Below, piece by piece: positions 21,352 to 59,883 of a stretch of 59,951 bases of DNA. The position numbers and the translations under genes were made by a program. Below the pieces are notes generated by a model. The model saw nothing but the letters and a program-made list of their open reading frames with translations, had not been told where the DNA came from and searched no databases. The DNA is taken from NCBI RefSeq assembly GCF_003334335.1, contig NZ_QOWQ01000031.1, one strand, 5' to 3'. This DNA comes from Escherichia coli (GTDB lineage Bacteria; Pseudomonadota; Gammaproteobacteria; Enterobacterales; Enterobacteriaceae). Positions within the stretch are counted from its first letter, which is position 1; every line of letters starts with the position of its first letter.

Positions 21352-21705
21352 ATGTCCGGCAAGCGTATCTCTCGTGAAAAACTGACGATTAAAAAAATGA
21401 TCGATCTTTATCAAGCGAAATGCCCGCAGGCGTCAGCGGAGCCGGAGCATTACGAGGCGTTGTTTGTTTACGCGCAAAAGCGGCTGGATAAATGTGTGTT
21501 CGGCGAAGAGAAACCAGCCTGTAAGCAGTGTCCGGTGCACTGTTACCAGCCTGCAAAGCGTGAAGAGATGAAACAGATTATGCGTTGGGCCGGGCCGAGA
21601 ATGCTGTGGCGTCATCCGATCTTAACCGTGCGTCATCTCATCGATGACAAGCGTCCGGTGCCAGAACTGCCGGAAAAATATCGTCCGAAAAAACCTCATG
21701 AATAG
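21352..21705 (+). CDS. ygbA: NsrR-regulated protein YgbA (function unknown)
   Basis: 117-aa ORF with cysteine-rich region; conserved position between mutS and fhlA. Confidence 0.8.
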   Translation: MSGKRISREKLTIKKMIDLYQAKCPQASAEPEHYEALFVYAQKRLDKCVFGEEKPACKQCPVHCYQPAKREEMKQIMRWAGPRMLWRHPILTVRHLIDDKRPVPELPEKYRPKKPHE

Positions 21706-21708
21706 TAT

Positions 21709-21732
21709 GCCGGACAGGCAGATCTGTCCGGC
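21709..21732. terminator. Hairpin between convergent ygbA and fhlA
   Basis: GCCGGACAG-GCAGAT-CTGTCCGGC, a 9-bp perfect stem in a 36-bp intergenic gap; weak flanking T/A runs. Confidence 0.45.
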
Positions 21733-21741
21733 AATTTGCAG

Positions 21742-26022: not shown

Positions 26023-26294
26023 TATTTTTCCTCGCCATACAACAGCGCGCCGACATCCGGCTCAACGTCAAACATGTTTTGTAAGGCGTCGAGAGTGTCG
26101 CGTGCTTCGGCTTCATTAATTACGCTCATGGCAAAGCCAACGTGTACCAGTACCCACTGGCCCACGCGCGGCTGACCGTTTTCATCGCAGCTGCCGACTA
26201 ACGTTAAATCGACATCGCGCTGAATGCCGCAGACGTCGACTTTCGCCTGGTTGCCGTCAATGGTGCGGATCTGGCCGGGAACGCCTATGCACAT
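26022..26294 (-). CDS. hypC: Hydrogenase maturation chaperone HypC
   Basis: Start trimmed to MCIGVPG (90 aa). Confidence 0.85.
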
Positions 26295-27157
26295 CGCTGT
26301 GTCTCCAGCCAGTTCAGCCACTGGTCCATCCCTTCGCCGCTGGTGGCGGAAATAAGGATGATTTCAATTTCTGGATTGACTTCGCGGGCGCAGGCGATGC
26401 ACTTTTCAACGTCAAAGTTGAGATACGGCAACAGGTCAACTTTGTTGAGCAGCATCAGCGAGGCGGCGGCAAACATATGCGGATATTTCAGCGGTTTGTC
26501 TTCACCTTCGGTAACGGAAAGCACCGCCACTTTGTGTTTTTCACCGAGATCGAAGCTGGCCGGGCATACGAGGTTGCCAACGTTTTCGATAAACAGAATA
26601 CCGTTATCGTCCAGTGGCAGACGCGGTGCGGCGTCGGCAATCATCTGTGCGTCAAGATGGCAGCCTTTACCGGTGTTCACCTGAATCGCTGGTGTGCCGG
26701 TAGCGCGAATGCGTGCGGCATCGTTCACGGTTTGCTGGTCGCCTTCAATAACTGCGCACGGAACGCTGTCTTTCAGGCGCATTAGGGTTTCCGTCAGCAG
26801 GGTGGTTTTACCGGAACCAGGGCTGGAAACCAGGTTGAGCACCAGTTGCTTGCGGGCAGCAAAGCGCGCGCGGTTGCGTTCAGCCAGACGGTTATTTTTG
26901 TCCAGCACGTCAATTTCGACTTCCAGCATCCGACGCTGGCTCATGCCCGGTGCGTGAGTGCCCGCTTCGCCATGACCGTAATGCAGGTCGCCTTCTTCAG
27001 TCTGGCTGGGGGTAAATTCAGGCGCTTTAATGCCGGTGATTTTCATCTTCGGGCGTGCCGCCGGGGCAAATGGCGCGCTACGAAACGCGGAATGAGGGTT
27101 ATGTTCATCACCCTCGATATACAGGTTGCCTTCACCGCAACCGCATGTTGTACACAT
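26285..27157 (-). CDS. hypB: Hydrogenase nickel-incorporation GTPase HypB
   Basis: 290-aa ORF with N-terminal MCTTCGCG metal-binding motif and GSGKTT P-loop. Confidence 0.92.
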
Positions 27158-27160
27158 CGC

Positions 27161-27511
27161 TCACTCCTGGTCTATTTCTATCCGCCGAATCTGTAAACCG
27201 TCGTCTGCCACAATCTGCAGCATGTCACCATGACACTGTGGACAGCGGCGGACGCGCTGGGTCAGTAGCGTCACATACTGTTGGCATGTTTCACACCAGC
27301 ATTCGGCCTCTTGTTCTTCGAGGTGCAGTTTACAACCTTCCGCCACGCTGCCGCGGCAAACCAGATCAAAACAAAAGGCAAGAGAGCTGGTTTCGACACA
27401 AGAAAATGCGCCAATTTTGAGCCAGACCCCAGTTACGCGTTTTGCGCCGTGTTTTGCGGCCTGCTGTTCGATCAATTCCAGTGCCCGTTGGCAGAGGGTT
27501 ATTTCGTGCAT
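27161..27511 (-). CDS. hypA: Hydrogenase nickel-insertion protein HypA
   Basis: Start trimmed to MHEITL (116 aa); CxxC...CxxC zinc site. Confidence 0.88.
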   Translation of the reverse strand: MHEITLCQRALELIEQQAAKHGAKRVTGVWLKIGAFSCVETSSLAFCFDLVCRGSVAEGCKLHLEEQEAECWCETCQQYVTLLTQRVRRCPQCHGDMLQIVADDGLQIRRIEIDQE

Positions 27512-27541
27512 ATCGCCTCCCATTAACTATTGCCAGCTACA

Positions 27542-27557
27542 AGCAATAATTGTGCCA
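27542..27557 (-). promoter_or_regulatory. Sigma54 -24/-12 promoter for the hyp operon
   Basis: Minus strand reads CTGGCACAATTATTGCT (GG-N10-GC), about 30 bp upstream of the hypA start. Confidence 0.55.
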
Positions 27558-27670
27558 GTGTTGATTATCCCTGCGGTGAATAATGTCGATGATGTCGAAA
27601 TGACACGTCGACACGGCGACGAAATTCATCTTTAGCTTAAAAATCTCTTTAATAACAATAAATTAAAAGT

Positions 27671-27686
27671 TGGCACAAAAAATGCT
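27671..27686 (+). promoter_or_regulatory. Sigma54 -24/-12 promoter for the hyc operon
   Basis: TGGCACAAAAAATGCT (GG-N10-GC), about 37 bp upstream of the hycA ATG; FhlA-dependent in E. coli. Confidence 0.6.
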
Positions 27687-27722
27687 TAAAGCTGGCATCT
27701 CTGTTAAACGGGTAACCTGACA

Positions 27723-28184
27723 ATGACTATTTGGGAAATAAGCGAGAAAGCCGATTACATCGCACAGCGGCATCGTCGCCTACAGGACCAGTGGCACATC
27801 TACTGCAATTCGCTGGTTCAGGGGATCACGTTATCGAAAGCGCGCCTGCATCACGCCATGAGCTGCGCGCCGGACAAAGAACTCTGTTTCGTCCTTTTTG
27901 AACATTTTCGCATTTACGTCACCCTGGCGGATGGCTTTAACAGCCACACCATCGAGTATTACGTCGAAACAAAAGATGGCGAAGACAAACAGCGGATTGC
28001 GCAGGCGCAACTGAGCATTGACGGCATGATTGATGGCAAGGTCAACATCCGCGATCGCGAACAGGTTCTGGAACACTATCTCGAAAAAATCGCTGGCGTT
28101 TACGACAGCTTATACACCGCTATTGAAAACAATGTGCCGGTGAATTTAAGCCAACTGGTAAAGGGACAAAGCCCGGCAGCATGA
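27723..28184 (+). CDS. hycA: Formate hydrogenlyase regulatory protein HycA
   Basis: 153-aa ORF; first gene of the hyc operon. Confidence 0.88.
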   Translation: MTIWEISEKADYIAQRHRRLQDQWHIYCNSLVQGITLSKARLHHAMSCAPDKELCFVLFEHFRIYVTLADGFNSHTIEYYVETKDGEDKQRIAQAQLSIDGMIDGKVNIRDREQVLEHYLEKIAGVYDSLYTAIENNVPVNLSQLVKGQSPAA

Positions 28185-28308
28185 GCTGAGGCTTTGCCCG
28201 TTTTGCAGGCGTTACGCCTGTTTGGGGATGGGCGTGTCGATGAGTGTCGAAAATGACATTTCATCGGCATGTTTTCGTCAAAAATGACAATCACCTGAGG
28301 AATGCCTG

Positions 28309-28920
28309 GTGAATCGTTTTGTAATTGCTGACTCCACGCTCTGTATCGGCTGCCACACTTGTGAGGCCGCCTGTTCAGAGACGCATCGCCAGCACGGCCT
28401 GCAATCAATGCCGCGCCTGAGAGTGATGCTGAATGAAAAAGAATCTGCGCCGCAGCTCTGTCACCACTGTGAAGATGCACCCTGCGCGGTGGTCTGCCCG
28501 GTTAACGCCATCACCCGCGTCGATGGGGCCGTGCAGTTGAATGAAAGCCTGTGCGTAAGCTGCAAGCTGTGCGGCATCGCCTGCCCGTTTGGCGCAATTG
28601 AATTTTCCGGCAGCCGTCCGCTGGATATTCCGGCAAACGCCAATACCCCGAAAGCGCCACCGGCACCGCCTGCTCCGGCGCGTGTCAGCACATTGCTTGA
28701 CTGGGTGCCAGGTATTCGCGCGATCGCCGTCAAATGTGACCTTTGTAGCTTTGATGAACAAGGTCCGGCCTGCGTGCGGATGTGCCCGACTAAAGCCCTG
28801 CATCTGGTGGATAACACCGATATCGCCCGCGTCAGCAAACGTAAGCGTGAGCTGACCTTTAACACGGACTTTGGCGATCTCACCTTGTTTCAGCAGGCTC
28901 AAAGTGGAGAGGCTAAATGA
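28309..28920 (+). CDS. hycB: Formate hydrogenlyase subunit 2 (4Fe-4S ferredoxin)
   Basis: 203-aa ORF with several CxxCxxCxxxCP motifs. Confidence 0.9.
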   Translation: MNRFVIADSTLCIGCHTCEAACSETHRQHGLQSMPRLRVMLNEKESAPQLCHHCEDAPCAVVCPVNAITRVDGAVQLNESLCVSCKLCGIACPFGAIEFSGSRPLDIPANANTPKAPPAPPAPARVSTLLDWVPGIRAIAVKCDLCSFDEQGPACVRMCPTKALHLVDNTDIARVSKRKRELTFNTDFGDLTLFQQAQSGEAK

Positions 28921-30743
28921 GCGCAATTTCCCTGATCAATAGCGGCGTGGCGTGGTTTGTCGCCGCCGCTGTTCTGGCATTTCTCTTTTCTTTTCAAAAA
29001 GCGTTAAGTGGCTGGATAGCTGGAATTGGCGGCGCGGTTGGTAGTCTGTATACGGCAGCCGCGGGCTTCACTGTACTGACTGGCGCGGTTGGCGTGAGCG
29101 GTGCGCTGTCGCTGGTAAGCTACGATGTGCAAATCTCTCCGCTTAACGCGATTTGGCTGATTACGCTCGGTCTGTGCGGTCTGTTTGTCAGCCTCTACAA
29201 CATTGACTGGCATCGCCACGCGCAGGTGAAGTGCAACGGCTTGCAGATCAATATGTTGATGGCTGCCGCCGTCTGCGCCGTCATTGCCAGCAACCTCGGC
29301 ATGTTCGTGGTAATGGCCGAAATCATGGCCCTGTGCGCGGTGTTCCTCACCAGCAACAGCAAAGAGGGCAAACTGTGGTTTGCGCTGGGGCGTCTTGGCA
29401 CTCTGCTGCTGGCGATTGCTTGCTGGCTGCTGTGGCAGCGTTACGGCACGCTGGATCTGCGCCTGCTGGATATGCGTATGCAACAGCTGCCGCTCGGTTC
29501 CGATATCTGGCTGCTCGGAGTGATTGGCTTTGGCCTGCTGGCCGGGATTATTCCGCTGCACGGCTGGGTGCCGCAGGCACATGCGAACGCCTCTGCGCCA
29601 GCTGCCGCGTTGTTTTCTACGGTAGTCATGAAAATTGGCCTGCTGGGCATTTTAACCCTGTCACTGCTGGGCGGTAATGCACCGCTGTGGTGGGGGATCG
29701 CGCTGCTGGTGCTCGGCATGATCACCGCGTTTGTCGGTGGTCTGTATGCGCTGGTGGAGCACAACATCCAGCGCCTGCTGGCTTACCACACCCTGGAAAA
29801 TATCGGCATCATCCTGCTGGGGCTGGGCGCTGGCGTAACGGGTATCGCGCTCGAACAACCGGCGCTGATTGCTCTTGGCCTGGTCGGTGGTCTGTACCAT
29901 CTGCTTAACCATAGCCTGTTCAAAAGCGTACTGTTCCTCGGGGCGGGGAGCGTCTGGTTCCGTACCGGTCATCGCGATATCGAAAAACTCGGTGGTATTG
30001 GCAAGAAAATGCCGGTTATCTCCATCGCCATGTTAGTCGGGCTGATGGCAATGGCTGCGCTGCCGCCGCTGAATGGTTTTGCCGGGGAATGGGTTATCTA
30101 TCAATCATTTTTCAAACTGAGCAATAGTGGCGCGTTTGTTGCCCGTCTGCTGGGGCCGCTGCTCGCTGTGGGGCTGGCAATTACCGGTGCGCTGGCGGTG
30201 ATGTGTATGGCGAAAGTCTATGGCGTCACGTTCCTCGGCGCGCCGCGCACCAAAGAAGCCGAAAACGCCACCTGTGCGCCGCTCCTGATGAGCGTAAGCG
30301 TAGTGGCACTGGCGATTTGCTGCGTAATTGGCGGTGTTGCTGCGCCGTGGCTACTGCCGATGCTCTCTGCTGCTGTACCTCTGCCGCTGGAGCCTGCTAA
30401 CACCACCGTTTCTCAACCGATGATCACGTTGCTGCTGATTGCCTGCCCGCTGCTGCCATTCATCATTATGGCGATTTGCAAAGGCGATCGTTTGCCATCG
30501 CGTTCCCGCGGTGCGGCCTGGGTGTGCGGTTACGACCACGAAAAATCAATGGTGATTACCGCTCACGGTTTTGCCATGCCGGTGAAACAGGCGTTTGCGC
30601 CGGTGCTGAAACTACGCAAATGGCTGAATCCGGTGTCTCTGGTGCCGGGCTGGCAGTGCGAGGGGAGTGCGTTGCTGTTCCGCCGGATGGCGCTGGTTGA
30701 ACTGGCGGTACTGGTGGTGATTATTGTTTCACGAGGAGCCTGA
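28917..30743 (+). CDS. hycC: Formate hydrogenlyase subunit 3 (NuoL-like membrane subunit)
   Basis: 608-aa polytopic membrane ORF; overlaps hycB by 4 bp. Confidence 0.9.
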   Translation: MSAISLINSGVAWFVAAAVLAFLFSFQKALSGWIAGIGGAVGSLYTAAAGFTVLTGAVGVSGALSLVSYDVQISPLNAIWLITLGLCGLFVSLYNIDWHRHAQVKCNGLQINMLMAAAVCAVIASNLGMFVVMAEIMALCAVFLTSNSKEGKLWFALGRLGTLLLAIACWLLWQRYGTLDLRLLDMRMQQLPLGSDIWLLGVIGFGLLAGIIPLHGWVPQAHANASAPAAALFSTVVMKIGLLGILTLSLLGGNAPLWWGIALLVLGMITAFVGGLYALVEHNIQRLLAYHTLENIGIILLGLGAGVTGIALEQPALIALGLVGGLYHLLNHSLFKSVLFLGAGSVWFRTGHRDIEKLGGIGKKMPVISIAMLVGLMAMAALPPLNGFAGEWVIYQSFFKLSNSGAFVARLLGPLLAVGLAITGALAVMCMAKVYGVTFLGAPRTKEAENATCAPLLMSVSVVALAICCVIGGVAAPWLLPMLSAAVPLPLEPANTTVSQPMITLLLIACPLLPFIIMAICKGDRLPSRSRGAAWVCGYDHEKSMVITAHGFAMPVKQAFAPVLKLRKWLNPVSLVPGWQCEGSALLFRRMALVELAVLVVIIVSRGA

Positions 30744-30745
30744 GA

Positions 30746-31669
30746 ATGAGTGTTTTATATCCGTTAATTCAGGCGCTGGTGTTATTTGCCGTTGCGCCGC
30801 TGCTCTCCGGTATAACCCGCGTGGCGCGCGCCCGCTTGCATAACCGTCGCGGGCCGGGCGTGTTGCAGGAGTATCGCGACATTATCAAACTGCTGGGGCG
30901 TCAGAGCGTCGGCCCGGATGCCTCCGGCTGGGTGTTCCGCCTGACGCCGTATGTGATGGTGGGCGTCATGCTGACTATCGCTACTGCGCTGCCGGTGGTG
31001 ACCGTCGGTTCTCCGCTGCCGCAACTGGGTGATTTGATCACCTTACTGTATCTCTTTGCCATCGCGCGTTTCTTCTTTGCCATTTCTGGTCTGGATACCG
31101 GTAGCCCGTTTACCGCTATCGGCGCGAGCCGTGAAGCGATGCTTGGCGTGCTGGTCGAACCGATGCTGCTGCTTGGTCTGTGGGTTGCCGCACAGGTTGC
31201 CGGTTCCACCAACATCAGCAACATCACCGACACCGTTTATCACTGGCCGCTGAGCCAGAGCATCCCGCTGGTACTGGCGCTTTGTGCCTGTGCGTTCGCC
31301 ACCTTTATCGAAATGGGCAAACTGCCGTTCGACCTGGCGGAAGCCGAGCAGGAGCTGCAGGAAGGCCCGCTCTCTGAATACAGCGGCAGCGGCTTTGGCG
31401 TCATGAAATGGGGTATCAGCCTGAAACAGCTGGTGGTGTTGCAGATGTTCGTCGGGGTGTTTATTCCGTGGGGACAAATGGAAACCTTCACCGCCGGTGG
31501 ACTGCTGCTGGCGCTGGTGATTGCCATCGTAAAACTGGTGGTCGGCGTCCTGGTTATCGCGCTGTTCGAAAACAGCATGGCCCGTCTGCGTCTTGATATT
31601 ACTCCGCGCATTACCTGGGCTGGGTTTGGCTTTGCATTTTTAGCGTTCGTCTCCTTGCTGGCGGCGTGA
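30746..31669 (+). CDS. hycD: Formate hydrogenlyase subunit 4 (NuoH-like membrane subunit)
   Basis: 307-aa membrane ORF. Confidence 0.9.
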   Translation: MSVLYPLIQALVLFAVAPLLSGITRVARARLHNRRGPGVLQEYRDIIKLLGRQSVGPDASGWVFRLTPYVMVGVMLTIATALPVVTVGSPLPQLGDLITLLYLFAIARFFFAISGLDTGSPFTAIGASREAMLGVLVEPMLLLGLWVAAQVAGSTNISNITDTVYHWPLSQSIPLVLALCACAFATFIEMGKLPFDLAEAEQELQEGPLSEYSGSGFGVMKWGISLKQLVVLQMFVGVFIPWGQMETFTAGGLLLALVIAIVKLVVGVLVIALFENSMARLRLDITPRITWAGFGFAFLAFVSLLAA

Positions 31670-31686
31670 TTAAAGAGAGTTTGAGC

Positions 31687-33396
31687 ATGTCTGAAGAAAA
31701 ATTAGGTCAACATTATCTCGCCGCGCTGAATGAGGCATTTCCGGGCGTCGTGCTGGACCACGCCTGGCAGACCAAAGATCAGCTGACTGTCACCGTAAAG
31801 GTGAACTACCTGCCGGAAGTGGTGGAGTTTCTTTACTACAAACAGGGTGGCTGGCTGTCGGTGCTGTTTGGTAACGACGAACGCAAACTGAATGGTCATT
31901 ACGCCGTTTACTACGTGCTGTCGATGGAGAAGGGCACTAAGTGTTGGATTACGGTTCGCGTCGAAGTTGACGCCAACAAACCGGAATATCCGTCCGTGAC
32001 GCCGCGCGTTCCGGCGGCGGTGTGGGGCGAGCGTGAAGTGCGCGATATGTACGGTTTGATTCCGGTTGGTCTGCCGGATGAACGTCGTCTGGTGCTGCCG
32101 GATGACTGGCCGGATGAACTTTATCCGCTGCGTAAAGACAGCATGGATTATCGTCAGCGTCCGGCACCGACCACCGATGCTGAAACCTACGAGTTCATCA
32201 ACGAACTGGGCGACAAGAAAAACAACGTCGTGCCGATTGGTCCGCTGCACGTCACTTCTGATGAACCGGGCCACTTCCGTCTGTTCGTCGATGGCGAAAA
32301 CATTATCGACGCCGACTACCGTCTGTTCTACGTCCATCGCGGCATGGAAAAACTGGCGGAAACCCGTATGGGTTATAACGAAGTGACCTTCCTCTCTGAC
32401 CGTGTGTGCGGGATCTGCGGCTTTGCCCACAGCACCGCCTACACCACGTCGGTGGAAAACGCGATGGGTATTCAGGTGCCAGAACGTGCGCAGATGATCC
32501 GCGCCATTCTGCTGGAGGTAGAACGCTTGCACTCGCATCTGCTCAACCTTGGCCTGGCCTGTCACTTTACCGGCTTCGACTCCGGCTTTATGCAGTTCTT
32601 CCGCGTGCGTGAAACCTCCATGAAAATGGCAGAGATCCTTACCGGTGCGCGTAAAACCTACGGCCTGAACTTGATCGGCGGGATTCGTCGCGATCTGCTG
32701 AAAGACGACATGATCCAGACCCGCCAGCTGGCACAACAGATGCGTCGTGAAGTGCAGGAGCTGGTGGATGTGCTGCTGAGCACTCCGAACATGGAACAGC
32801 GCACTGTCGGCATTGGTCGTCTGGACCCGGAAATCGCTCGCGACTTCAGTAACGTCGGCCCGATGGTCCGTGCCAGCGGTCACGCCCGTGATACCCGCGC
32901 CGATCACCCGTTTGTCGGCTATGGCCTGCTGCCAATGGAAGTCCACAGCGAGCAGGGCTGCGACGTTATTTCCCGTCTGAAAGTGCGTATCAACGAAGTC
33001 TATACCGCGCTGAACATGATCGACTACGGTCTGGATAACCTGCCGGGTGGCCCACTGATGGTGGAAGGCTTTACCTACATTCCGCACCGCTTTGCGCTGG
33101 GCTTTGCCGAAGCGCCGCGCGGCGATGATATCCACTGGAGCATGACCGGCGACAACCAGAAGCTGTACCGCTGGCGCTGCCGTGCCGCGACCTACGCGAA
33201 CTGGCCGACCCTGCGCTACATGCTGCGCGGCAACACCGTTTCCGATGCGCCGCTGATTATCGGTAGCCTCGACCCTTGCTACTCCTGTACCGACCGCATG
33301 ACCGTGGTCGATGTGCGTAAGAAGAAGAGCAAAGTGGTGCCGTACAAAGAACTCGAGCGTTACAGCATTGAGCGTAAAAACTCGCCGCTGAAATAA
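31687..33396 (+). CDS. hycE: Hydrogenase 3 large subunit [NiFe]
   Basis: Start trimmed to MSEEKLGQHY (569 aa); C-terminal DPCYSCTDR nickel-binding motif. Confidence 0.9.
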   Translation: MSEEKLGQHYLAALNEAFPGVVLDHAWQTKDQLTVTVKVNYLPEVVEFLYYKQGGWLSVLFGNDERKLNGHYAVYYVLSMEKGTKCWITVRVEVDANKPEYPSVTPRVPAAVWGEREVRDMYGLIPVGLPDERRLVLPDDWPDELYPLRKDSMDYRQRPAPTTDAETYEFINELGDKKNNVVPIGPLHVTSDEPGHFRLFVDGENIIDADYRLFYVHRGMEKLAETRMGYNEVTFLSDRVCGICGFAHSTAYTTSVENAMGIQVPERAQMIRAILLEVERLHSHLLNLGLACHFTGFDSGFMQFFRVRETSMKMAEILTGARKTYGLNLIGGIRRDLLKDDMIQTRQLAQQMRREVQELVDVLLSTPNMEQRTVGIGRLDPEIARDFSNVGPMVRASGHARDTRADHPFVGYGLLPMEVHSEQGCDVISRLKVRINEVYTALNMIDYGLDNLPGGPLMVEGFTYIPHRFALGFAEAPRGDDIHWSMTGDNQKLYRWRCRAATYANWPTLRYMLRGNTVSDAPLIIGSLDPCYSCTDRMTVVDVRKKKSKVVPYKELERYSIERKNSPLK

Positions 33397-33405
33397 GGAA
33401 TCGCC

Positions 33406-33948
33406 ATGTTTACCTTTATCAAAAAAGTCATCAAAACCGGCACGGCGACCTCGTCTTATCCGCTGGAGCCGATTGCGGTTGATAAAAACTTCCGTGGTAA
33501 GCCAGAGCAGAACCCGCAGCAGTGCATCGGCTGCGCGGCCTGCGTCAATGCCTGCCCGTCAAACGCCTTAACGGTTGAAACTGACCTCGCCACAGGAGAG
33601 CTTGCCTGGGAGTTTAATCTTGGGCACTGCATCTTCTGTGGACGCTGCGAAGAAGTCTGCCCGACGGCGGCGATCAAACTGTCGCAAGAGTACGAACTGG
33701 CGGTGTGGAAGAAAGAAGACTTCCTGCAACAGTCCCGCTTCGCGCTGTGCAACTGCCGCGTCTGCAATCGTCCTTTCGCCGTCCAGAAAGAGATCGACTA
33801 CGCCATTGCGCTGCTTAAGCACAACGGCGACAGCCGCGCGGAAAACCACCGCGAAAGCTTTGAGACTTGCCCGGAATGTAAGCGCCAGAAATGCCTGGTG
33901 CCGTCCGACCGTATTGAACTGACTCGCCATATGAAAGAGGCCATCTGA
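33406..33948 (+). CDS. hycF: Formate hydrogenlyase subunit 6 (ferredoxin)
   Basis: 180-aa ORF with two 4Fe-4S motifs. Confidence 0.9.
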
Positions 33949-34715
33949 TGAGCAATTTATTAGGCCCCCGTGACGCCAACGGCATTCCGGTCCCCATGAC
34001 GGTGGATGAATCCATCGCCAGCATGAAGGCGTCGTTACTGAAAAAAATCAAACGTTCTGCCTATGTTTACAGCGTGGACTGCGGCGGCTGCAACGGTTGC
34101 GAAATCGAAATTTTCGCCACGCTTTCGCCGCTGTTTGATGCAGAACGCTTCGGCATTAAAGTCGTTCCTTCACCGCGTCATGCGGATATTTTACTGTTTA
34201 CCGGCGCGGTCACCCGTGCAATGCGATCCCCTGCGCTGCGTGCGTGGCAGTCCGCGCCGGACCCGAAAATTTGTATCTCCTACGGTGCCTGCGGTAACAG
34301 TGGCGGGATCTTCCACGATCTCTACTGCGTGTGGGGCGGTACGGATAAAATTGTCCCTGTGGATGTTTATATCCCTGGCTGCCCGCCAACGCCTGCCGCC
34401 ACGCTGTACGGCTTTGCAATGGCGCTCGGCCTGCTGGAGCAGAAAATTCACGCCCGTGGGCCGGGTGAACTGGATGAACAACCGGCGGAGATCCTGCATG
34501 GTGATATGGTGCAGCCGCTGCGCGTGAAAGTGGATCGCGAAGCACGTCGCCTGGCGGGTTATCGTTACGGTCGTCAGATTGCCGATGATTACCTTACACA
34601 GTTAGGGCAGGGCGAAGAACAGGTTGCACGCTGGCTGGAAGCGGAAAACGATCCGCGTCTGAACGAGATTGTCAGCCATCTGAATCATGTTGTTGAAGAG
34701 GCGCGTATCCGATGA
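33948..34715 (+). CDS. hycG: Hydrogenase 3 small subunit (NuoB-like)
   Basis: 255-aa ORF with CGGCNGCE motif. Confidence 0.9.
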
Positions 34716-35122
34716 GTGAAAAGGTGGTGTTCAGTCAACTGAGCCGTAAATTTATTGATGAGAACGATGCCACGCCCGCCGAGGCGCAGCAGGTGGTCTA
34801 TTACAGCCTGGCGATTGGTCACCACCTTGGGGTTATCGATTGCCTGGAAGCGGCGCTCACCTGCCCGTGGGATGAATATCTGGCATGGATTGCCACTCTG
34901 GAGGCAGGCAGTGAAGCCCGCCGCAAAATGGAAGGCGTGCCGAAATATGGTGAGATCGTCATCGACATTAACCATGTGCCGATGCTGGCCAACGCATTCG
35001 ATAAAGCCCGGGCAGCGCAAACTTCGCAGCAGCAGGAATGGAGTACAATGCTGTTAAGTATGCTGCATGATATTCATCAGGAAAACGCCATCTATTTGAT
35101 GGTGAGGAGACTGCGTGACTGA
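34712..35122 (+). CDS. hycH: Formate hydrogenlyase maturation protein HycH
   Basis: 136-aa ORF; overlaps hycG by 4 bp. Confidence 0.85.
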
Positions 35123-35585
35123 CGTTTTACTCTGTGTTGGCAATAGCATGATGGGCGATGATGGCGCAGGTCCGCTGCTGGCGGAAAAGTGCGCCGCCGC
35201 GCCGAAAGGTAACTGGGTGGTGATTGACGGCGGTAGCGCACCGGAAAACGACATCGTCGCTATCCGTGAACTGCGCCCGACACGACTGCTGATTGTCGAC
35301 GCCACGGATATGGGGCTAAACCCCGGCGAGATCCGCATCATCGACCCGGATGATATCGCCGAGATGTTTATGATGACTACCCATAACATGCCGTTGAATT
35401 ACCTTATCGACCAGTTGAAAGAAGATATTGGCGAAGTGATTTTCCTCGGCATTCAGCCGGATATCGTCGGCTTTTACTACCCGATGACCCAGCCGATTAA
35501 AGATGCGGTAGAAACCGTTTATCAACGACTGGAAGGCTGGGAAGGAAATGGCGGCTTCGCGCAGTTAGCGGTGGAAGAAGAGTAG
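35115..35585 (+). CDS. hycI: Hydrogenase 3 maturation endopeptidase HycI
   Basis: 156-aa ORF; overlaps hycH by 8 bp. Confidence 0.88.
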   Translation: MTDVLLCVGNSMMGDDGAGPLLAEKCAAAPKGNWVVIDGGSAPENDIVAIRELRPTRLLIVDATDMGLNPGEIRIIDPDDIAEMFMMTTHNMPLNYLIDQLKEDIGEVIFLGIQPDIVGFYYPMTQPIKDAVETVYQRLEGWEGNGGFAQLAVEEE

Positions 35586-35656
35586 TTTTTCATTAAGGAA
35601 TCAGGACAGGGATGTTCTTGATGGGGTGAACCAGCTCTGATGCCAAATGCTAAATT

Positions 35657-35736
35657 GCCCGATGCGCTGCGCTTATCGGGCCTTCATGGTTCGTGCGACA
35701 TGTAGGCCGGATAAGGCGTTCACGCCGCATCCGGCA
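35657..35736. repeat. REP/BIME elements (two palindromic units)
   Basis: GCCCGATGCGCTGCGCTTATCGGGCC and GTAGGCCGGATAAGGCGTTCACGCCGCATCCGGCAC between hycI and ascB. Confidence 0.8.
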
Positions 35737-35743
35737 CTGTTAC

Positions 35744-38634
<2,891 letters not shown>

Positions 38635-38717
38635 CGGATTTTATCCTGTTATCAGTAGGGTAGATGTAGTTGTTATCAGTCGACGTGACGGAAAAATGCC
38701 GATGCTGAAACGGAATT

Positions 38718-38807
38718 AAGAAACCGGTTTCACAAAATCATGAATAGTTGTCACTAAATAAGCAAGAGAGTGAATTGTTCATTTTTTATATTTGTGAAAC
38801 CGGTCAC
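38718..38807. promoter_or_regulatory. Candidate AscG operators: two inverted copies of TGTGAAACCGGT in the ascF/ascG divergent promoter region
   Basis: 38720-38731 is the perfect palindrome GAAACCGGTTTC; 38793-38807 is TGTGAAACCGGTCAC. Resembles LacI/GalR-type operators. Confidence 0.5.
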
Positions 38808-38890
38808 CTGAATATTTTTCCCGCCGATTGTGCAAGGACAATCGGCAAACGGTGCAGTACACTGCGTTGATTGCGTGTAAAGGGATGAAA

Positions 38891-39904
38891 ATGATGACGA
38901 CGATGCTGGAAGTGGCGAAGCGCGCCGGGGTTTCAAAAGCGACCGTTTCCCGCGTGCTTTCAGGTAATGGCTACGTCAGCCAGGAGACTAAAGATCGCGT
39001 GTTTCAGGCGGTAGAAGAGAGCGGTTACCGTCCAAACTTGCTGGCGCGCAATCTGTCGGCGAAGAGTACTCAGACGCTGGGGCTGGTAGTGACCAACACG
39101 CTTTACCACGGCATTTATTTTAGTGAATTACTCTTTCATGCCGCGCGAATGGCGGAAGAGAAAGGGCGGCAGTTGCTATTGGCAGATGGTAAACACAGCG
39201 CAGAAGAAGAGCGCCAGGCGATTCAGTATCTGCTGGATCTGCGCTGCGACGCGATCATGATTTACCCGCGTTTTTTAAGCGTGGATGAGATCGATGACAT
39301 CATTGACGCGCACAGTCAGCCGATAATGGTGCTTAATCGCCGCCTGCGCAAAAACAGCAGCCATAGCGTCTGGTGCGATCATAAACAGACCAGTTTTAAC
39401 GCCGTGGCAGAGTTGATAAACGCCGGGCATCAGGAGATTGCTTTCCTTACCGGCTCGATGGATTCCCCCACCAGCATTGAACGTCTTGCCGGGTATAAAG
39501 ACGCGCTGGCGCAGCATGGTATTGCGCTCAATGAAAAACTTATCGCTAACGGTAAATGGACGCCTGCCAGCGGGGCCGAAGGGGTAGAAATGTTGCTCGA
39601 ACGTGGGGCTAAATTTAGCGCGTTAGTTGCCAGTAACGACGATATGGCGATAGGTGCGATGAAAGCGTTACACGAGCGCGGCGTAGCGGTGCCAGAGCAG
39701 GTGTCAGTTATCGGATTCGATGATATCGCTATTGCCCCCTACACCGTTCCGGCGCTCTCCAGCGTAAAAATTCCGGTGACTGAGATGATTCAGGAAATTA
39801 TTGGACGGCTGATTTTTATGCTCGATGGCGGGGATTTCTCACCGCCGAAAACCTTCAGCGGAAAACTGATCCGCCGCGACTCACTCATTGCTCCTTCGCG
39901 ATAA
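38891..39904 (+). CDS. ascG: LacI-family repressor of the asc operon
   Basis: Start trimmed to MMTTMLEVAKRAGVSKATVSRVL (337 aa); appears intact, with no IS insertion. Confidence 0.88.
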   Translation: MMTTMLEVAKRAGVSKATVSRVLSGNGYVSQETKDRVFQAVEESGYRPNLLARNLSAKSTQTLGLVVTNTLYHGIYFSELLFHAARMAEEKGRQLLLADGKHSAEEERQAIQYLLDLRCDAIMIYPRFLSVDEIDDIIDAHSQPIMVLNRRLRKNSSHSVWCDHKQTSFNAVAELINAGHQEIAFLTGSMDSPTSIERLAGYKDALAQHGIALNEKLIANGKWTPASGAEGVEMLLERGAKFSALVASNDDMAIGAMKALHERGVAVPEQVSVIGFDDIAIAPYTVPALSSVKIPVTEMIQEIIGRLIFMLDGGDFSPPKTFSGKLIRRDSLIAPSR

Positions 39905-40052
39905 ACATTGTCATCACATGTCATCGTCACTAGTGTCGATGACATCGTTTTTCCTGCATTACAGAAATTAATTTCCTTAAATAACAGTAAATTAAAAACT
40001 GGCATGATTTGTGAATGTATCGGCGCATTAACTGTCATTGCTGGAGAATTTG

Positions 40053-40580
40053 ATGAACCGTTTCATCATTGCTGACGCGAGTAAATGTATTGGTTGCCGT
40101 ACCTGTGAAGTAGCGTGCGTGGTTTCTCATCAGGAAAATCAGGACTGTGCATCGCTGACCCCGGAAACTTTTTTACCGCGTATCCATGTCATTAAAGGTG
40201 TGAACATTTCCACGGCGACAGTTTGCCGTCAGTGTGAAGATGCACCGTGCGCTAACGTCTGCCCGAATGGTGCTATCAGCCGTGATAAAGGGTTTGTTCA
40301 TGTGATGCAGGAACGTTGCATTGGTTGCAAAACCTGCGTTGTGGCTTGCCCGTATGGTGCGATGGAAGTGGTGGTACGTCCGGTGATCCGCAACAGCGGC
40401 GCGGGTCTGAATGTACGGGCTGACAAAGCCGAAGCCAATAAATGCGACCTGTGCAACCATCGTGAAGACGGCCCGGCGTGTATGGCGGCTTGCCCGACTC
40501 ATGCGCTGATTTGTGTCGATCGTAATAAACTTGAACAACTGAGCGCAGAAAAACGCCGCCGTACGGCGCTGATGTTCTAA
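40053..40580 (+). CDS. hydN: Electron-transfer 4Fe-4S ferredoxin HydN
   Basis: Start trimmed to [15 protein letters not shown] (175 aa); several Cys clusters. Confidence 0.88.
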
Positions 40581-40732
40581 AAATCTTACAGAACTGTTCT
40601 GGCATCAAAGGAATTCCCGGAAATATTCGTAGAATACGGAGCGGGCGGTATCGCCGACCTGTGACTGCCGGATGCGACGCTGTCGTGTCCGGCAGGGCGG
40701 GTTACGCAATTCATGATGGCGGGAATAACTCA

Positions 40733-42985
40733 ATGGCAAAAAACACATCTTGCGGTGTCCAACTGCGTATTCGTGGCAAAGTGCAGGGCGTCGGTTTTCG
40801 TCCGTTTGTCTGGCAGCTGGCACAGCAATTAAATCTTCACGGCGATGTCTGTAATGACGGCGATGGCGTAGAAGTCCGGCTGCGGGAAGACCCGGAAACG
40901 TTTCTTGTTCAATTGTATCAGCACTGCCCGCCGCTGGCGCGTATTGATAGCGTCGAGCGTGAGCCGTTTATCTGGTCACAACTGCCCACCGAGTTCACTA
41001 TACGCCAGAGCACAGGCGGCACCATGAATACGCAAATTGTTCCCGATGCCGCTACTTGCCCTGCTTGCCTTGCCGAAATGAATACCCCAGGCGAACGGCG
41101 TTATCGTTATCCGTTTATCAACTGTACCCACTGCGGCCCGCGTTTCACCATTATTCGCGCCATGCCTTACGACCGCCCGTTTACCGTGATGGCGGCGTTT
41201 CCGCTATGTCCGGCCTGTGACAAAGAGTACCGTGACCCGCTCGATCGTCGCTTCCACGCCCAGCCGGTGGCCTGCCCGGAGTGTGGCCCGCATCTTGAAT
41301 GGGTAAGTCATGGTGAACATGCGGAACAAGAGGCGGCATTACAGGCAGCTATCGCACAGTTAAAAATGGGCAAAATTGTCGCCATCAAAGGGATTGGCGG
41401 ATTTCATCTTGCCTGCGATGCACGTAACAGTAACGCGGTGGCGACACTTCGGGCGCGCAAACATCGCCCGGCGAAACCGCTGGCGGTCATGTTGCCAGTG
41501 GCTGACGGTTTACCAGACGCTGCGCGCCAGTTGCTTACCACGCCCGCCGCGCCGATTGTGCTGGTGGATAAAAAATACGTTCCTGAGCTTTGTGATGATA
41601 TCGCCCCTGACCTTAACGAAGTCGGGGTAATGTTGCCTGCGAACCCGCTCCAGCATTTGCTGTTACAGGAACTGCAATGCCCGCTGGTGATGACCTCCGG
41701 CAACCTGAGCGGTAAACCACCAGCTATCAGCAACGAACAGGCGCTGGCGGATTTGCAGGGCATTGCCGACGGATTCTTGATACATAACCGCGACATCGTG
41801 CAGCGGATGGATGATTCGGTGGTGCGCGAAAGCGGCGAAATGCTGCGCCGTTCGCGGGGGTATGTGCCGGATGCGCTGGCTTTGCCTCCGGGCTTTAAAA
41901 ATGTTCCGCCTGTGCTGTGTCTCGGCGCGGATCTGAAAAATACCTTCTGCCTGGTGCGCGGTGAACAAGCGGTGTTGAGTCAGCATCTGGGCGATTTAAG
42001 TGACGATGGCATCCAGATGCAGTGGCGCGAAGCGTTACGCCTGATGCAAAACATCTACGATTTTACCCCGCAATACGTTGTGCATGACGCGCATCCGGGC
42101 TATGTCTCCAGCCAGTGGGCGCGTGAAATGAATCTGCCGACGCAAACGGTACTGCATCATCATGCCCATGCAGCGGCGTGTCTGGCAGAGCATCAGTGGC
42201 CGCTGGATGGCGGTGATGTCATTGCTTTGACGCTCGACGGTATCGGTATGGGGGAGAACGGCGCTTTGTGGGGCGGCGAGTGCCTGCGGGTGAACTATCG
42301 CGAATGTGAGCACCTGGGCGGCTTGCCTGCAGTGGCGCTTCCGGGTGGCGATTTGGCAGCGAAGCAGCCGTGGCGAAACCTGCTGGCGCAGTGCCTGCGC
42401 TTTGTGCCGGAGTGGCAGAATTACTCTGAAACAGCAAGTGTGCAACAGCAAAACTGGAGCGTGCTGGCGCGGGCCATTGAGCGTGGAATTAACGCGCCGC
42501 TGGCGTCATCGTGTGGGCGTTTTTTCGATGCAGTGGCGGCGGCACTGGGCTGTGCGCCAGCCACGTTAAGTTATGAAGGTGAAGCGGCTTGTGCTCTGGA
42601 GGCGCTCGCAGCCTCATGCCACGGAGTGACGCATCCGGTGACAATGCCGCGGGTGGACAATCAACTGGATCTCGCCACTTTCTGGCAGCAGTGGCTGAAC
42701 TGGCAGGCACCGGTTAATCAACGCGCGTGGGCGTTTCATGATGCGCTGGCGCAGGGTTTTGCCGCGTTGATGCGTGAGCAGGCCACGATGCGTGGTATCA
42801 CTACGCTGGTATTTAGCGGCGGGGTTATTCATAACCGTTTGCTGCGTGCACGTCTGGCGCATTATCTCGCTGATTTCACATTGCTCTTTCCACAGAGTTT
42901 ACCGGCGGGTGATGGCGGTTTGTCTCTGGGGCAGGGGGTTATTGCTGCGGCGCGTTGGTTAGCGGGTGAAGTCCAGAACGGATAA
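40733..42985 (+). CDS. hypF: [NiFe]-hydrogenase maturation carbamoyltransferase HypF
   Basis: Start trimmed to [25 protein letters not shown] (750 aa); acylphosphatase domain, two CxxC zinc fingers, YrdC-like and Kae1-like domains. Confidence 0.9.
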
Positions 42986-43009
42986 AACGTGTTGCATTTG
43001 GACACCATT

Positions 43010-43092
<83 letters not shown>

Positions 43093-43112
43093 TTTTAGGC
43101 ACAGTAGCCCAC

Positions 43113-44246
43113 CTACATCGGCAATGTTTTCAACAATCCAAATGCCTCTTTCATCCGATCCTCACTGACCACAAAGGCGCGAAGCTGGTCAGCATCGTCA
43201 ACGCCGCGCGCCACCATTCCCTGGCGTTCGGTATTAATTTGCCAGCGTAAATCCTGACGCTGGGTTTCGCCTGCCAGATGCAGCGGTAATTCCGGCGTTT
43301 TGATTTTCACCAGCATCGCCGGGAGTTTCAGCGGCGTGTTATTGCCGAGAAGATTTTTTGCCAGCACCATCGCGCTAAGTTGAATCGGCTGGAGGAACGG
43401 CAATACCTGACCGTTAATTTCCGCGCAATCGCCCAGCGCGTAAATATCGGTATTACTGGTTTGCAGATAACTATCGACGCAAACGCCGCGATTAATCGTC
43501 AGCCCGGCGCGTCGTGCCAGGGCGGTTTCCGGGCGCAGTCCGGTGGCGGCAATTACCGCATCCACTTCGATGCTACGCTGGCGGTCCAGCGTTGCCAGAA
43601 TGCCAGAATCCGTTTTTTCCAGCCCCTGCAACTGAGATTTCAACAGCAGATGAACACCCATCTCCGTCAACCGATGCTGCAAGCGGCTGCTTACTTCCGG
43701 TGGCATTAACGACGCCAGAATACTGGCAGCGTTGTCGATTAGCGTGACCGCTTTGCCTGCACGACAAAAATCCATCGCCAGTTCGCTACCAATCAAACCA
43801 CCGCCAACAATCAACACGCGTCGGGCATCCCGCAGTTGCGTTTCACAGGCGCGATACTCTTGCTGACTATTTAACGTCAGCATTAACTCACGCCCAGGCA
43901 CAGGCGGGACAAAGGCGCTGGCACCGGTTGCCAGCACTAACTTGTCGTATTGCCACTGATTATTCTGGCTTTTCACCACATGGGCTTCGGCATCGATATC
44001 CGTCACCCAGGTGTGCGGAAACAGGCGCAGATTAAACTGCTCGGCAAATTCACCCGCCGTCTGGCGGGTAAGGTCGTCGGCACGTTGCCCCTGACTGATA
44101 ACATGGCTGAGGTCAGGTTTGTTGTACTCATCTATGCTGTCGGCGGCAATCAAGGTTAATGGAATAGTGGCGTCCTGTTTGCGAATATTTTTCACCAGTT
44201 GTCGGGCGGCGAAGCCCGAACCAATGATCACAATGCCGTTGCTCAT
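43113..44246 (-). CDS. norW: NADH:flavorubredoxin oxidoreductase
   Basis: 377-aa ORF with FAD/NAD(P)-binding GxGxxG motifs. Confidence 0.9.
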
Positions 44247-45682
44247 TTTGCCTCCGATGCCAGTTCGTCAAAGACGTCTTTGCCGAGGGAGCATTCCGGG
44301 CACAGGAAGTTATCCGGGACTTCACTCCACGGCGTTCCTGGTGCAACGTCCTGCATTGGCTCGCCTTTTGCCGGATCGTAAATCCACCGGCAGACGCTGC
44401 ACTGCATCCGTGGGCCGAGGTCAGCCGTCGTGGCGGCAGAGGTTTCTTCTTTAACTACCGTATTCACCGTGCTCTGCGGCAGCGGCGCGAGCGCCCACTG
44501 ACGGGCGATTTCGCGACCGTGTTCACGGCATAACTCCAGAGCGTCCTGGTCTGGTCGCCATTTGGCTTTCAGGCTGAGCGACATTTCGAAACCCGCATCC
44601 TGCAGGCGCGTGGAAAGACGATCCACCGCACCGCCGCTCCAGCCGTGAGAGCCGAAAGCACTGGCGCGTTTGTTACGGAAGCGTAAACCAGTCATCTCCT
44701 CCACCAGCCCGGCGATTTTCGGCATCATCACGTTATTCATCGTCGAAGTGCCGACCAGCACGCCTTTTGAGCGGAAGACATTGGTCAGGATTTCGTTTTT
44801 ATCGCTTCGGGCGACGTTGAAAATTTTCACCGCCACGCGTGGGTCGGTTTCCGCAATCCCCTGGGCGATAGCGTCAGCCATCATGCGGGTGTTATTCGAC
44901 ATGGTGTCGTAGAAAATGGTGATTCTGTCTTCCTGATAATCAGCCGCCCATTTCAGGTACAGCTCGACAATTTGCGTCGGGTTATCGCGCCAGACCACGC
45001 CGTGGGAGGTCGCTATCATATCGACTGATAAGTTAAAGCCCAGGATCTCGGTAATTTTCGGCGTTACCAGGCGGCTGAACGGCGTCAGGATATTGGCGTA
45101 GTAACGCTGGCACTGCTCGAAAAGCTCCGTCTGATCCACTTCATCGTTGAACAGATGCTCGTCACAGTAGTGCTGACCGAAAGCATCGTTACTGAACAGC
45201 ACCGCGTCGCCTGTCAGGTAAGTCATCATGCTGTCCGGCCAGTGCAGCATTGGTGTTTCGACAAAAATGAGCTGTTTGCCGTTGCCGATATCCAGCGTGT
45301 CGCCAGTTTTCACCACATTAAAATTCCACTCCGGATGATGGTGATGACCATTTATCGAGTCGATAGCGTTGGCAGTACAGTAGATCGGCGTATCGGGAAT
45401 TTGTGCCATCAGTTCGGTCAGCGCCCCAGCGTGGTCCTCTTCTGCATGGTTAATCACGATGTAATCGATATCCGCCAGATCGATTTCATTACGCAGGTTC
45501 TGCACAAATTCGCGGCTGAATTTATGGTCGACGGTGTCGATCAGCACGTTTTTTTCTTCGCGGATGAGGTAGCTATTGTAGCTGCTGCCGCGCAGCGTTT
45601 TATATTCCGTGCCGTGAAAATCACGCACTTCCCAGTCACGTTGACCAACCCAATGAATGTTATTTTTCACCACAATAGACAT
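44243..45682 (-). CDS. norV: Anaerobic nitric oxide reductase flavorubredoxin
   Basis: 479-aa ORF: metallo-beta-lactamase-like and flavodoxin domains plus C-terminal rubredoxin (CSVC...CPEC). Confidence 0.92.
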
Positions 45683-45729
45683 AGCAACCTCAATTTATTC
45701 AGCGTGTTCTAAAAAGATGTCTTGCTAAT

Positions 45730-45745
45730 TGCAGATTGCGTGCCA
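45730..45745 (-). promoter_or_regulatory. Sigma54 -24/-12 promoter for norVW
   Basis: Minus strand reads TGGCACGCAATCTGCA, about 48 bp upstream of the norV start. Confidence 0.65.
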
Positions 45746-45800
45746 GTTTTTTATCTGATTGTTTTTACTCTATAAATAAAATTATGCCCATTAATGAGTA

Positions 45801-45856
45801 GTCAAAATGACTATCAATCAAATGGTCGATATGACAATATCTATAGTCAAATTGAC
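45801..45856. promoter_or_regulatory. Three NorR enhancer boxes (GT-N7-AC)
   Basis: GTCAAAATGAC (45801-45811), GTCGATATGAC (45825-45835), GTCAAATTGAC (45846-45856), between the divergent norR and norV starts. Confidence 0.7.
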
Positions 45857-45868
45857 AGTGAGGCAAAG

Positions 45869-47383
45869 ATGAGTTTTTCCGTTGATGTGCTGGCGAATAT
45901 CGCCATCGAATTGCAGCGTGGGATTGGTCACCAGGATCGTTTTCAGCGCCTGATCACCACGCTACGTCAGGTGCTGGAGTGCGATGCGTCTGCGTTGCTA
46001 CGTTACGATTCGCGGCAGTTTATTCCGCTTGCCATCGACGGTCTGGCAAAGGATGTACTCGGTAGACGCTTTGCGCTGGAAGGGCATCCACGGCTGGAAG
46101 CGATTGCCCGCGCCGGGGATGTGGTGCGCTTTCCCGCAGACAGCGAATTGCCCGATCCCTATGACGGTTTGATTCCTGGGCAGGAGAGTCTGAAGGTTCA
46201 CGCCTGCGTTGGTCTGCCATTGTTTGCCGGGCAAAACCTGATCGGCGCACTGACGCTCGACGGGATGCAGCCCGATCAGTTCGATGTTTTCAGCGACGAA
46301 GAGCTACGGCTGATTGCTGCGCTGGCGGCGGGAGCGTTAAGCAATGCGTTGCTGATTGAACAACTGGAAAGCCAGAATATGCTGCCAGGCGATGCCACGC
46401 CGTTTGAAGCGGTGAAACAGACGCAGATGATTGGCTTGTCCCCTGGCATGACGCAACTGAAAAAAGAGATTGAGATTGTGGCGGCGTCCGATCTCAACGT
46501 CCTGATCAGCGGTGAGACTGGAACCGGTAAGGAGCTGGTGGCGAAAGCGATTCATGAAGCCTCGCCACGGGCGGTGAATCCGCTGGTCTATCTCAACTGT
46601 GCTGCACTGCCGGAAAGTGTGGCGGAAAGTGAGTTGTTCGGGCATGTGAAAGGAGCGTTTACTGGCGCTATCAGTAATCGCAGCGGGAAGTTTGAAATGG
46701 CGGATAACGGCACGCTGTTTCTGGATGAGATCGGCGAGTTGTCGTTGGCATTGCAGGCCAAGCTGCTGAGGGTGTTGCAGTATGGCGATATTCAGCGCGT
46801 TGGCGATGACCGTTGTTTGCGGGTCGATGTGCGCGTGCTGGCGGCGACTAACCGCGATTTACGCGAAGAGGTGCTGGCAGGGCGATTCCGCGCCGATTTG
46901 TTTCATCGCCTGAGCGTGTTTCCACTTTCGGTGCCGCCGCTGCGTGAGCGGGGCGATGATGTCATTCTGCTGGCGGGGTATTTCTGCGAGCAGTGTCGTT
47001 TGCGGCAGGGGCTCTCCCGCGTGGTATTAAGTGCCGGAGCGCGAAATTTACTGCAACACTACAGTTTTCCGGGAAACGTGCGCGAACTGGAACATGCTAT
47101 TCATCGGGCGGTAGTTCTGGCGAGAGCCACCCGCAGCGGCGATGAAGTGATTCTTGAGGCGCAACATTTTGCTTTTCCTGAGGTGACGTTGCCGACGCCA
47201 GAAGTGGCGGCGGTGCCCGTTGTTAAGCAAAACCTGCGTGAAGCGACAGAAGCGTTCCAGCGTGAAACTATTCGTCAGGCACTGGCACAAAATCATCACA
47301 ACTGGGCTGCCTGCGCGCGGATGCTGGAAACCGACGTCGCCAACCTGCATCGGCTGGCGAAACGTCTGGGATTGAAGGATTAA
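45869..47383 (+). CDS. norR: Nitric-oxide-responsive sigma54-dependent activator NorR
   Basis: Start trimmed to [12 protein letters not shown] (504 aa); GAF domain, AAA+ GETGTGKE and GAFTGA motifs, C-terminal HTH. Confidence 0.9.
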
Positions 47384-49537: not shown

Positions 49538-49641
49538 AACTTTTCCTTAATGTAGTGGCGGAAGTCCTGTATGCCTGATGAGCGTAGCGCATCAGGCATT
49601 CTATAGTCTCACGGAGATCCTTAATGGATCTCCGCTGTTGA

Positions 49642-59512: not shown

Positions 59513-59605
59513 GGTGAGGTGGCCGAGAGGCTGAAGGCGCTCCCCTGCTAAGGGAGTATGCGGTCAAAAGCTGCATCCGGGGTTCGAATCCCCGCCTCAC
59601 CGCCA
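59513..59605 (+). tRNA. serV: tRNA-Ser (anticodon GCU)
   Basis: GGTGAGG/CCTCACC acceptor stem, long variable arm, T-arm GGTTCGAATCC, 3' GCCA; anticodon loop CTGCTAA. Confidence 0.9.
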
Positions 59606-59608
59606 TTT

Positions 59609-59685
59609 GCATCCGTAGCTCAGCTGGATAGAGTACTCGGCTACGAACCGAGCGGTCGGAGGTTCGAATCCTCCCGGATGCACCA
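59609..59685 (+). tRNA. argV: tRNA-Arg (anticodon ACG)
   Basis: GCATCCG/CGGATGC acceptor stem, anticodon loop CTACGAA, T-arm GGTTCGAATCC, 3' ACCA. Starts 3 bp after tRNA-Ser. Confidence 0.9.
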
Positions 59686-59819: not shown

Positions 59820-59883
59820 TCTCTTACTTGATACGGCTTTAGTAGCGGTATCAAAAAATCTGCAGTAAAGTAAGTTTCCCGAT

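Follow-up and report, generated by a model that had tools for sequence, protein, structure and literature searches.

The gaps between hycI and ascB and between hypF and norW each hold one pair of repetitive extragenic palindromes (REPs), and both sites are ordinary E. coli REP/BIME pairs of a kind already known. We consider it very probable that these are two BIMEs of the y/z1/z2 family that were seeded by the transposase RayT, that they would act as exonuclease blocks in 3' untranslated regions, that the one next to ascB would stall ribosomes, and that the one next to norW is of the kind able to bind gyrase. Every functional step proposed here for the two sites is carried over from what is reported for the REP family. 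An earlier note on this DNA had placed REP palindromes at 35657-35736 and 43010-43092 of the window (the whole stretch of 59,951 nucleotides that was analyzed); they are present there, with coordinates right to within one base. It had also described them as REP/BIME elements of a known kind, located where transcription units end, and the high copy number, the family stem, and the location in convergent gaps all agree with this.

Two REP pairs in convergent intergenic gaps

Positions 26158-46158 of the window aligned without gaps to positions 2832000-2852000 of MG1655, in reverse orientation and with 99.8% identity (39 mismatches); window position p converts to MG1655 position 2878158 - p. The gene names hycI(+)/ascB(-) and hypF(+)/norW(-) come from the annotation of MG1655 and of other E. 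coli genomes matched by both regions, and are those given in the earlier note. The stop codon of hycI (+ strand) lies at 35583-35585 and that of ascB (- strand) at 35746-35744, leaving 158 bp between these convergent genes. For the equally convergent hypF (+ strand, stop codon 42983-42985) and norW (- strand, stop codon 43115-43113), the distance is 127 bp. In this arrangement, two transcripts share each gap as 3' untranslated sequence.

The first site (35657-35736, 80 bases) is made up of a z1-class REP and a canonical y REP, with a linker of 16 nt between them. Its sequence reads T-GCCCGATGCGCTGCGCTTATCGGGC-CTTC (35656-35685), ATGGTTCGTGCGACAT (35686-35701), and GTAG-GCCGGATAAGGCGTTCACGCCGCATCCGGC-A (35702-35736). 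The z1-class REP, here called R1, is of the short type and lies on the - strand (35656-35685), with a stem-loop at 35657-35681 (GCCCGAT...ATCGGGC) in which the fourth stem pair is a compensated C-G. Its flanking tetranucleotide is GAAG on the - strand (CTTC at 35682-35685), which replaces GTAG, and its inner sequence AAGCGCAGCGC ranks second in frequency among the short-type variants in a set of 315 REPs from other genomes. The linker (35686-35701), measured between the tetranucleotides, differs from the 35-nt L motif. The y REP, R2, lies on the + strand (35702-35736) and consists of GTAG, a stem-loop at 35706-35735, and a final A; on the ascB mRNA, read from the - strand, its hairpin starts 8 nt past the stop codon. 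Judged by its components, this site is an atypical BIME, with the composition of BIME-1 (z1 + y) minus the defining L linker.

The second site (43009-43092, 84 bases) pairs a y REP with a z2-class REP across a linker of 12 nt, and reads T-GCCGGATGCGGCGTAAACGCCTTATCCGGC-CTAC (43009-43043), ACATGCGTCCCC (43044-43055), and GTAG-GTCGGATAAGACGCGCCAGCGTCGCATCCGAC-A (43056-43092). The canonical y REP, R3, lies on the - strand (43009-43043); its stem-loop at 43010-43039 is near-identical to that of R2 when read on that strand, where its GTAG corresponds to CTAC at 43040-43043. After the linker (43044-43055, 12 nt between the tetranucleotides) comes R4, a z2-class REP of the long type on the + strand (43056-43092), made up of GTAG, a stem-loop at 43060-43091 (GTCGGAT...ATCCGAC), and a final A. 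Its second stem pair is a compensated T-A, a position at which U-A occurs in 6 other distinct REPs, and its inner sequence AAGACGCGCCAGCGTCGC was found 4 times among the 315 REPs from other genomes. Going by its sequence, this site is one BIME-2-type unit, with 12 nt between its y and z2-class REPs. Within each pair, at both sites, the GTAG-bearing ends point toward each other, and a repeat finder detected every palindrome and showed the two REPs of each pair to be complementary to one another. The single palindrome type quoted in the earlier note thus describes one y REP per site, resembling GCCGGATAAGGCGTTCACGCCGCATCCGGC, but not the partners, which are z1-class at the first site and z2-class at the second.

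Neither gap was matched in an Rfam scan of the window, in which the only matches were three tRNAs at the window end. The RefSeq annotation of NC_000913.3 carries zero repeat features, even at REP325, and its silence at these loci is therefore uninformative. The supplementary tables of PMC3333891, PMC6061677, and PMC12306157 hold no entry for hycI, ascB, hypF, norW, or srlD. Elsewhere in the window, the three tRNA genes are consecutive (59513-59951), the last one being truncated by the window edge. At the other end, positions 222-372 hold tandem repeats with a period of 61 and about 2.5 units, which contain GTGTTCCCCGCGCCAGCGGGGATAAACCG. We take this to be the type I-E CRISPR repeat of E. coli; the Rfam scan of the window at gathering thresholds returned no CRISPR family.

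Membership in the REP family and class assignment

Both sites are far beyond chance. The 13-mer GCCGGATGCGGCG occurs with zero mismatches exactly twice in the window, once per site, while looser matches are background. The 601-bp regions around the sites match a median of at least 37 (first site) and at least 27 (second site) places per genome, and each is present in all 5426 complete E. coli genomes. At least 120 stretches of DNA from Escherichia, Citrobacter, and Pseudocitrobacter contain an exact copy of the 35-mer GTAGGCCGGATAAGGCGTTYACGCCGCATCCGGCA, which comprises GTAG and the y REP; E. albertii, Pseudocitrobacter faecalis, and E. coli each account for dozens of the matches listed, and Citrobacter werkmanii for one.

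A covariance model was seeded, after family alignment, with the five REPs of the window: R1 to R4 and a solitary fifth REP, R5, described below. The seeds score 48.7 (R1), 59.8 (R2), 58.4 (R3), 51 (R4), and 44.2 bits (R5), the 49 to 60 bits of R1 to R4 following by construction, as these REPs seed the model. Independent support comes from 288 further matches to the model in 668 kb of Escherichia, Citrobacter, and Pseudocitrobacter DNA. In the 150 best of these matches (104 distinct sequences), the seven-pair outer stem is 99.7% paired, and changes on both sides of the stem occur at two positions only. These are the fourth pair, which is G-C or U-A and distinguishes y from z, and the second, which is C-G, with U-A in 6 of the 104 distinct sequences. 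The compensatory changes fall exactly at the two positions where R1 and R4 depart from the consensus.

A pattern scan of 1.02 Mb of loci from other genomes yielded the 315 REPs referred to above. Their stem-loops fall into three size classes of 25, 30, and 32-33 nt, which correspond to z1, y, and z2. The fourth stem pair is G-C in 200, T-A in 98, C-G in 7, and A-T in 2 of them, and the second is C-G in 290 and T-A in 10. As C-G at the fourth and T-A at the second pair recur in the family, the stems of R1 and R4 are recurrent compensated variants. GTAG precedes the stem in 285 of the 315 REPs; within the window, it is present on R2, R3, and R4 and absent from R1 (GAAG) and R5 (GTAT).

All five REPs of the window share the family stem GNCNGAT...ATCNGNC (consensus GCC[G/T]GAT...ATC[C/A]GGC), and R1 to R4 carry the AA bulge, which is largely lost in R5. 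The three size classes, the extragenic location, the high copy number, and the GTAG on R2, R3, and R4 are further points of likeness. The differences are the GAAG and the C-G fourth pair of R1, the T-A second pair of R4 together with its y-like G-C fourth pair, and the GTAT and nearly perfect stem of R5; these departures are minor variants with parallels elsewhere in the family. As both sites align with the y/z1/z2 consensus, a comparison that the earlier note had named as the check on its reading, their identity as REPs stands.

BIME-1 has been defined as z1 + y in single copy with a long, well-conserved L linker that is often an IHF site, and BIME-2 as z2 + y in tandem copies with a short linker, while atypical BIMEs are chimeras of the two (PMC3333891). 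In our sample from other genomes, pairs of y with the short class have linkers of 34-35 nt in 47 of 66 cases and of 16-21 nt in 11 of 66, and the conserved core of the 35-nt L linker is AATATATTGAATTT, one base from the IHF consensus. Since the short class partners y across the 35-nt L linker, it is z1. The long class was named through REP325 at yjdM-yjdN, which has been described as six Y+Z2 units (PMC4550694). In MG1655, REP325 consists of y and the long class (GCCTGATAAGACGCGCAAGCGTCGCATCAGGC), and as its authors call it Y+Z2, the long class is z2.

The second site resembles REP325 and BIME-2 in its y + z2 composition, its facing GTAG sides, and its short linker, and its number of units varies between strains. 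However, it has one unit in place of six, and its linker is 12 nt long compared with 17 nt in REP325; sampled y/z2 pairs in that orientation mostly have 14-17 nt. The first site resembles BIME-1, RIP, and RIB elements in pairing z1 and y in the same relative orientation and in single copy, but differs from them in having a linker of 16 nt rather than the 35-nt L (which contains AATATATTGAATTT) and in lacking the IHF motif. A hairpin with a 5' guide-like tetranucleotide is also found in the subterminal hairpins of IS200/IS605 elements and in the REPtron of RayT (TnpAREP). In these systems, tetranucleotide and hairpin are recognized as single-stranded DNA by a Y1 HUH enzyme (PMC3333891, PMC8266576). 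Unlike the RayT REPtron, neither of the two BIMEs adjoins a transposase gene, which makes them non-autonomous copies.

Other REPs in the window and variation among E. coli genomes

REPs had been assigned to operon boundaries, which holds for both pairs but overlooks R5, whose stem-loop at 49573-49597 lies inside the srl operon. This solitary, z1-like REP (49569-49598, + strand, with GTAT and a nearly perfect stem) sits in the srlD-gutM gap, according to the annotation. A perfect hairpin that is not a REP (49612-49634) adjoins it, directly past the srlD stop codon. The fold z-scores of R5 and the neighboring hairpin are -6.0 and -4.3, and the region may be an intra-operon RNA stabilizer or an attenuator between structural and regulatory genes. 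All five REPs are intergenic, and five per 60 kb is in line with the 584 REPs of the K-12 genome (PMC3333891).

A further palindrome, the perfect 10-bp hairpin TGCCGGACAG-GCAGAT-CTGTCCGGCA at 21702-21735, occupies the 36-bp gap between the convergent genes fhlA and ygbA. Its outer stem is weakly REP-like, at 19.6 bits and an E-value of about 0.001 with the covariance model, and it is probably either a terminator that both genes share or a relic of a REP. Loose matches at 19782, 40667, 41866, 50994, and 3650 were rejected, as they lie in coding DNA and are either missed by the model or score at chance level; the match at 40664-40696 reaches 14.6 bits (E = 0.04).

Both loci vary among the 5426 E. 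coli genomes, with allele frequencies that are rough, as they rest on 40 evenly spaced rows per ranking. Between hypF and norW, roughly one genome in two resembles the window in having one unit, and roughly one in three has two, with a gap of 221-225 bp and a decayed second y REP. About 13% have a REP-less gap of 78 bp with a different hairpin (737 of the 5426 genomes fall below 80% coverage). In the REP-less gap of strain AH50 (locus L004, 275-352), the hairpin is CCCTCGCCCTTTGGGCGAGGG, and hypF is four codons shorter. A 17-nt piece of this locus, TGGCGGATGTGGCGTAA, resembles the head of a y REP.

Between hycI and ascB, we found z1, linker, and y (the window and L008), z1 and y without the linker (L007 and L009), and z1 alone (L006 and L010, where the y REP R2 is absent). 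The y REP at ascB is missing in roughly a tenth to an eighth of E. coli genomes. The filled form GCGACATGTAG[GCCGGATAAGGCGTTCACGCCGCATCCGGCACTG]TTAC differs cleanly from the empty forms GCGACAGTAGGTTAC or GCGACGGTAGTTAC. In the window, 35702-35739 is filled, GTAG[GCCGG...CCGGCACTG]TTAC, versus the empty GTAGGTTAC or GTAGTTAC of L006 and L010, that is, GTAG(G)TTAC. From these sequences, the GTAG and linker kept in the empty alleles would favor loss of the hairpin over its gain. It seems improbable that the y REP is a natural on/off switch that tunes AscB by stalling, or that the filled/empty pair reveals insertion or excision of a REP at its GTAG side in vivo.

The presence/absence and copy-number polymorphism at both loci shows that the repeats are dispensable, which weighs against the functions proposed below. 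Such polymorphism has already been described for BIMEs (PMC3333891), and the copy-number variation at hypF/norW and hycI/ascB resembles what has been reported for BIME-2 and for atypical BIMEs.

On the hycI side of the first site, about 43% of the genomes depart from the K-12 arrangement (2346 of 5426 have no place that covers at least 80% of the first-site query). In the non-K-12 genomes that were inspected, hycI and the z1 REP are separated by a complete or reduced islet, which consists of a gene for a 251-aa hypothetical protein and a HigB/HigA toxin-antitoxin pair. Compared with loci L007-L011, window positions 35586-35655, the 70 bases from the hycI stop codon to the z1 REP, resemble a scar left by two microhomology deletions, one between copies of the short repeat GATGTGC inside the hypothetical gene and one between copies of ACTGA around higBA. 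This reading accounts for 70 bases upstream of the first BIME that are otherwise without assignment.

Origin and candidate roles of the two BIMEs

The REP-associated tyrosine transposase RayT probably seeded and reshaped both BIMEs by way of single-stranded REP hairpins with a 5' GTAG. Such action would account for both the high copy number and the copy-number variation between strains. The rayT gene lies outside the window; in MG1655, the annotation includes it, with y REPs on either side. RayT is not known to mobilize REPs in vivo. In vitro, RayT cleaves and recombines REPs (PMC3333891), for which it requires both GTAG and the stem bulge (PMC3333891, PMC8266576), and the E. coli enzyme tolerates no mutation of GTAG (PMC8266576). 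By this rule, R1, with its GAAG, should not be a substrate of RayT.

Transcription of both strands would make the elements part of the 3' untranslated regions of hycI, ascB, hypF, and norW. By analogy with the family, a stable RNA hairpin in the 3' untranslated region that acts against exonucleases is the likeliest role: either the GC-rich hairpins or the long hairpin formed between the two REPs would probably stop 3'-to-5' exonucleases, which would fix and stabilize the 3' ends of transcripts that end without intrinsic termination. Transcribed REPs have been reported to resist 3' exonucleases and to set steady-state 3' ends, many of the transcripts being Rho-terminated further downstream (PMC6061677). 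The predicted RNA folds are consistent with this role. At the second site, the two strands fold at -50.2 and -53.0 kcal/mol (z-scores -6.0 and -4.5) into one long inter-REP hairpin, and at the first site at -41.0 and -42.3 kcal/mol, with modest z-scores of -2.2 and -2.6.

Stable hairpins directly past four stop codons could also be bidirectional intrinsic (Rho-independent) terminators of the convergent genes that are merely REP-like, and on the + strand R4 is followed by ACATTTT. However, a terminator scan of 35586-35743 and 42986-43112 found no hairpin-plus-T-run site in either gap; the four T after R4 are the only ones, as the other three hairpin exits lack a T run. Moreover, unlike locus-specific terminators, these sequences are repeats with identical copies at many other places in the genome. 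Intrinsic terminators were rejected on these grounds, and we regard this explanation as very unlikely. The claim in the earlier note that the repeats mark transcript ends is supported by their position between convergent genes only. A role that lies mainly at the DNA level, in which the repeats bind IHF, DNA gyrase, or Pol I and organize the chromosome, is also unlikely, though less so. BIME-2-type y + z2 units are reported as gyrase targets and the L linkers of BIME-1 as binding IHF (PMC3333891; Espeli and Boccard 1997), and the second site is a y + z2 unit; it would thus be of the BIME-2 kind able to bind DNA gyrase. IHF, which the earlier note had listed among the possible functions, is excluded, however, by linkers of 16 and 12 nt versus 35 nt for L and by the lack of the core motif WATCAANNNNTTR, within one mismatch, in either gap. 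A further argument against a mainly DNA-level role is that each locus in the window has a single unit.

A more serious alternative, which we consider quite possible though not the favored reading, is that these REPs are neutral selfish DNA that persists as harmless insertions between convergent 3' ends, with no selected role in RNA or translation. In its favor, hypF/norW is polymorphic within one species, with 0, 1, or 2 units, hycI/ascB varies between z1 only, z1 + y, and z1 + y without linker, the second y copy has decayed in the two-unit hypF/norW allele, and GTAG has been lost from R1 and R5. On the other hand, once transcribed, any GC-rich hairpin with an energy of -40 to -50 kcal/mol impedes 3' exonucleases whether it is selected or not (PMC6061677). 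Neutrality is a question of selection and is compatible with a block to exonucleases.

Besides its candidate role at RNA 3' ends, the hairpin at ascB may affect translation. The distance from stop codon to stem is 8 nt for ascB, 21 for norW, 24 for hypF, and 71 for hycI. REPs are reported to lower translation only if fewer than 16 nt separate their start from the stop codon (Liang et al. 2015, cited through PMC12306157), and at 8 nt, ascB alone qualifies. The y REP would here be near enough to stall a terminating ribosome and to lower AscB output. ascB belongs to a cryptic operon, however, so any such effect may not matter.

The REP family has been described since the 1980s, and assigning 80 and 84 intergenic bases to this long-described family carries little weight beyond annotation. 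The generic list of functions for such repeats can be corrected here, since neither element can serve as an IHF site. With 8 nt between the ascB stop codon and the y REP, an effect on translation is predicted that can be tested, and the presence or absence of single REPs between strains, with clean boundaries, is material for studies of REP gain and loss.
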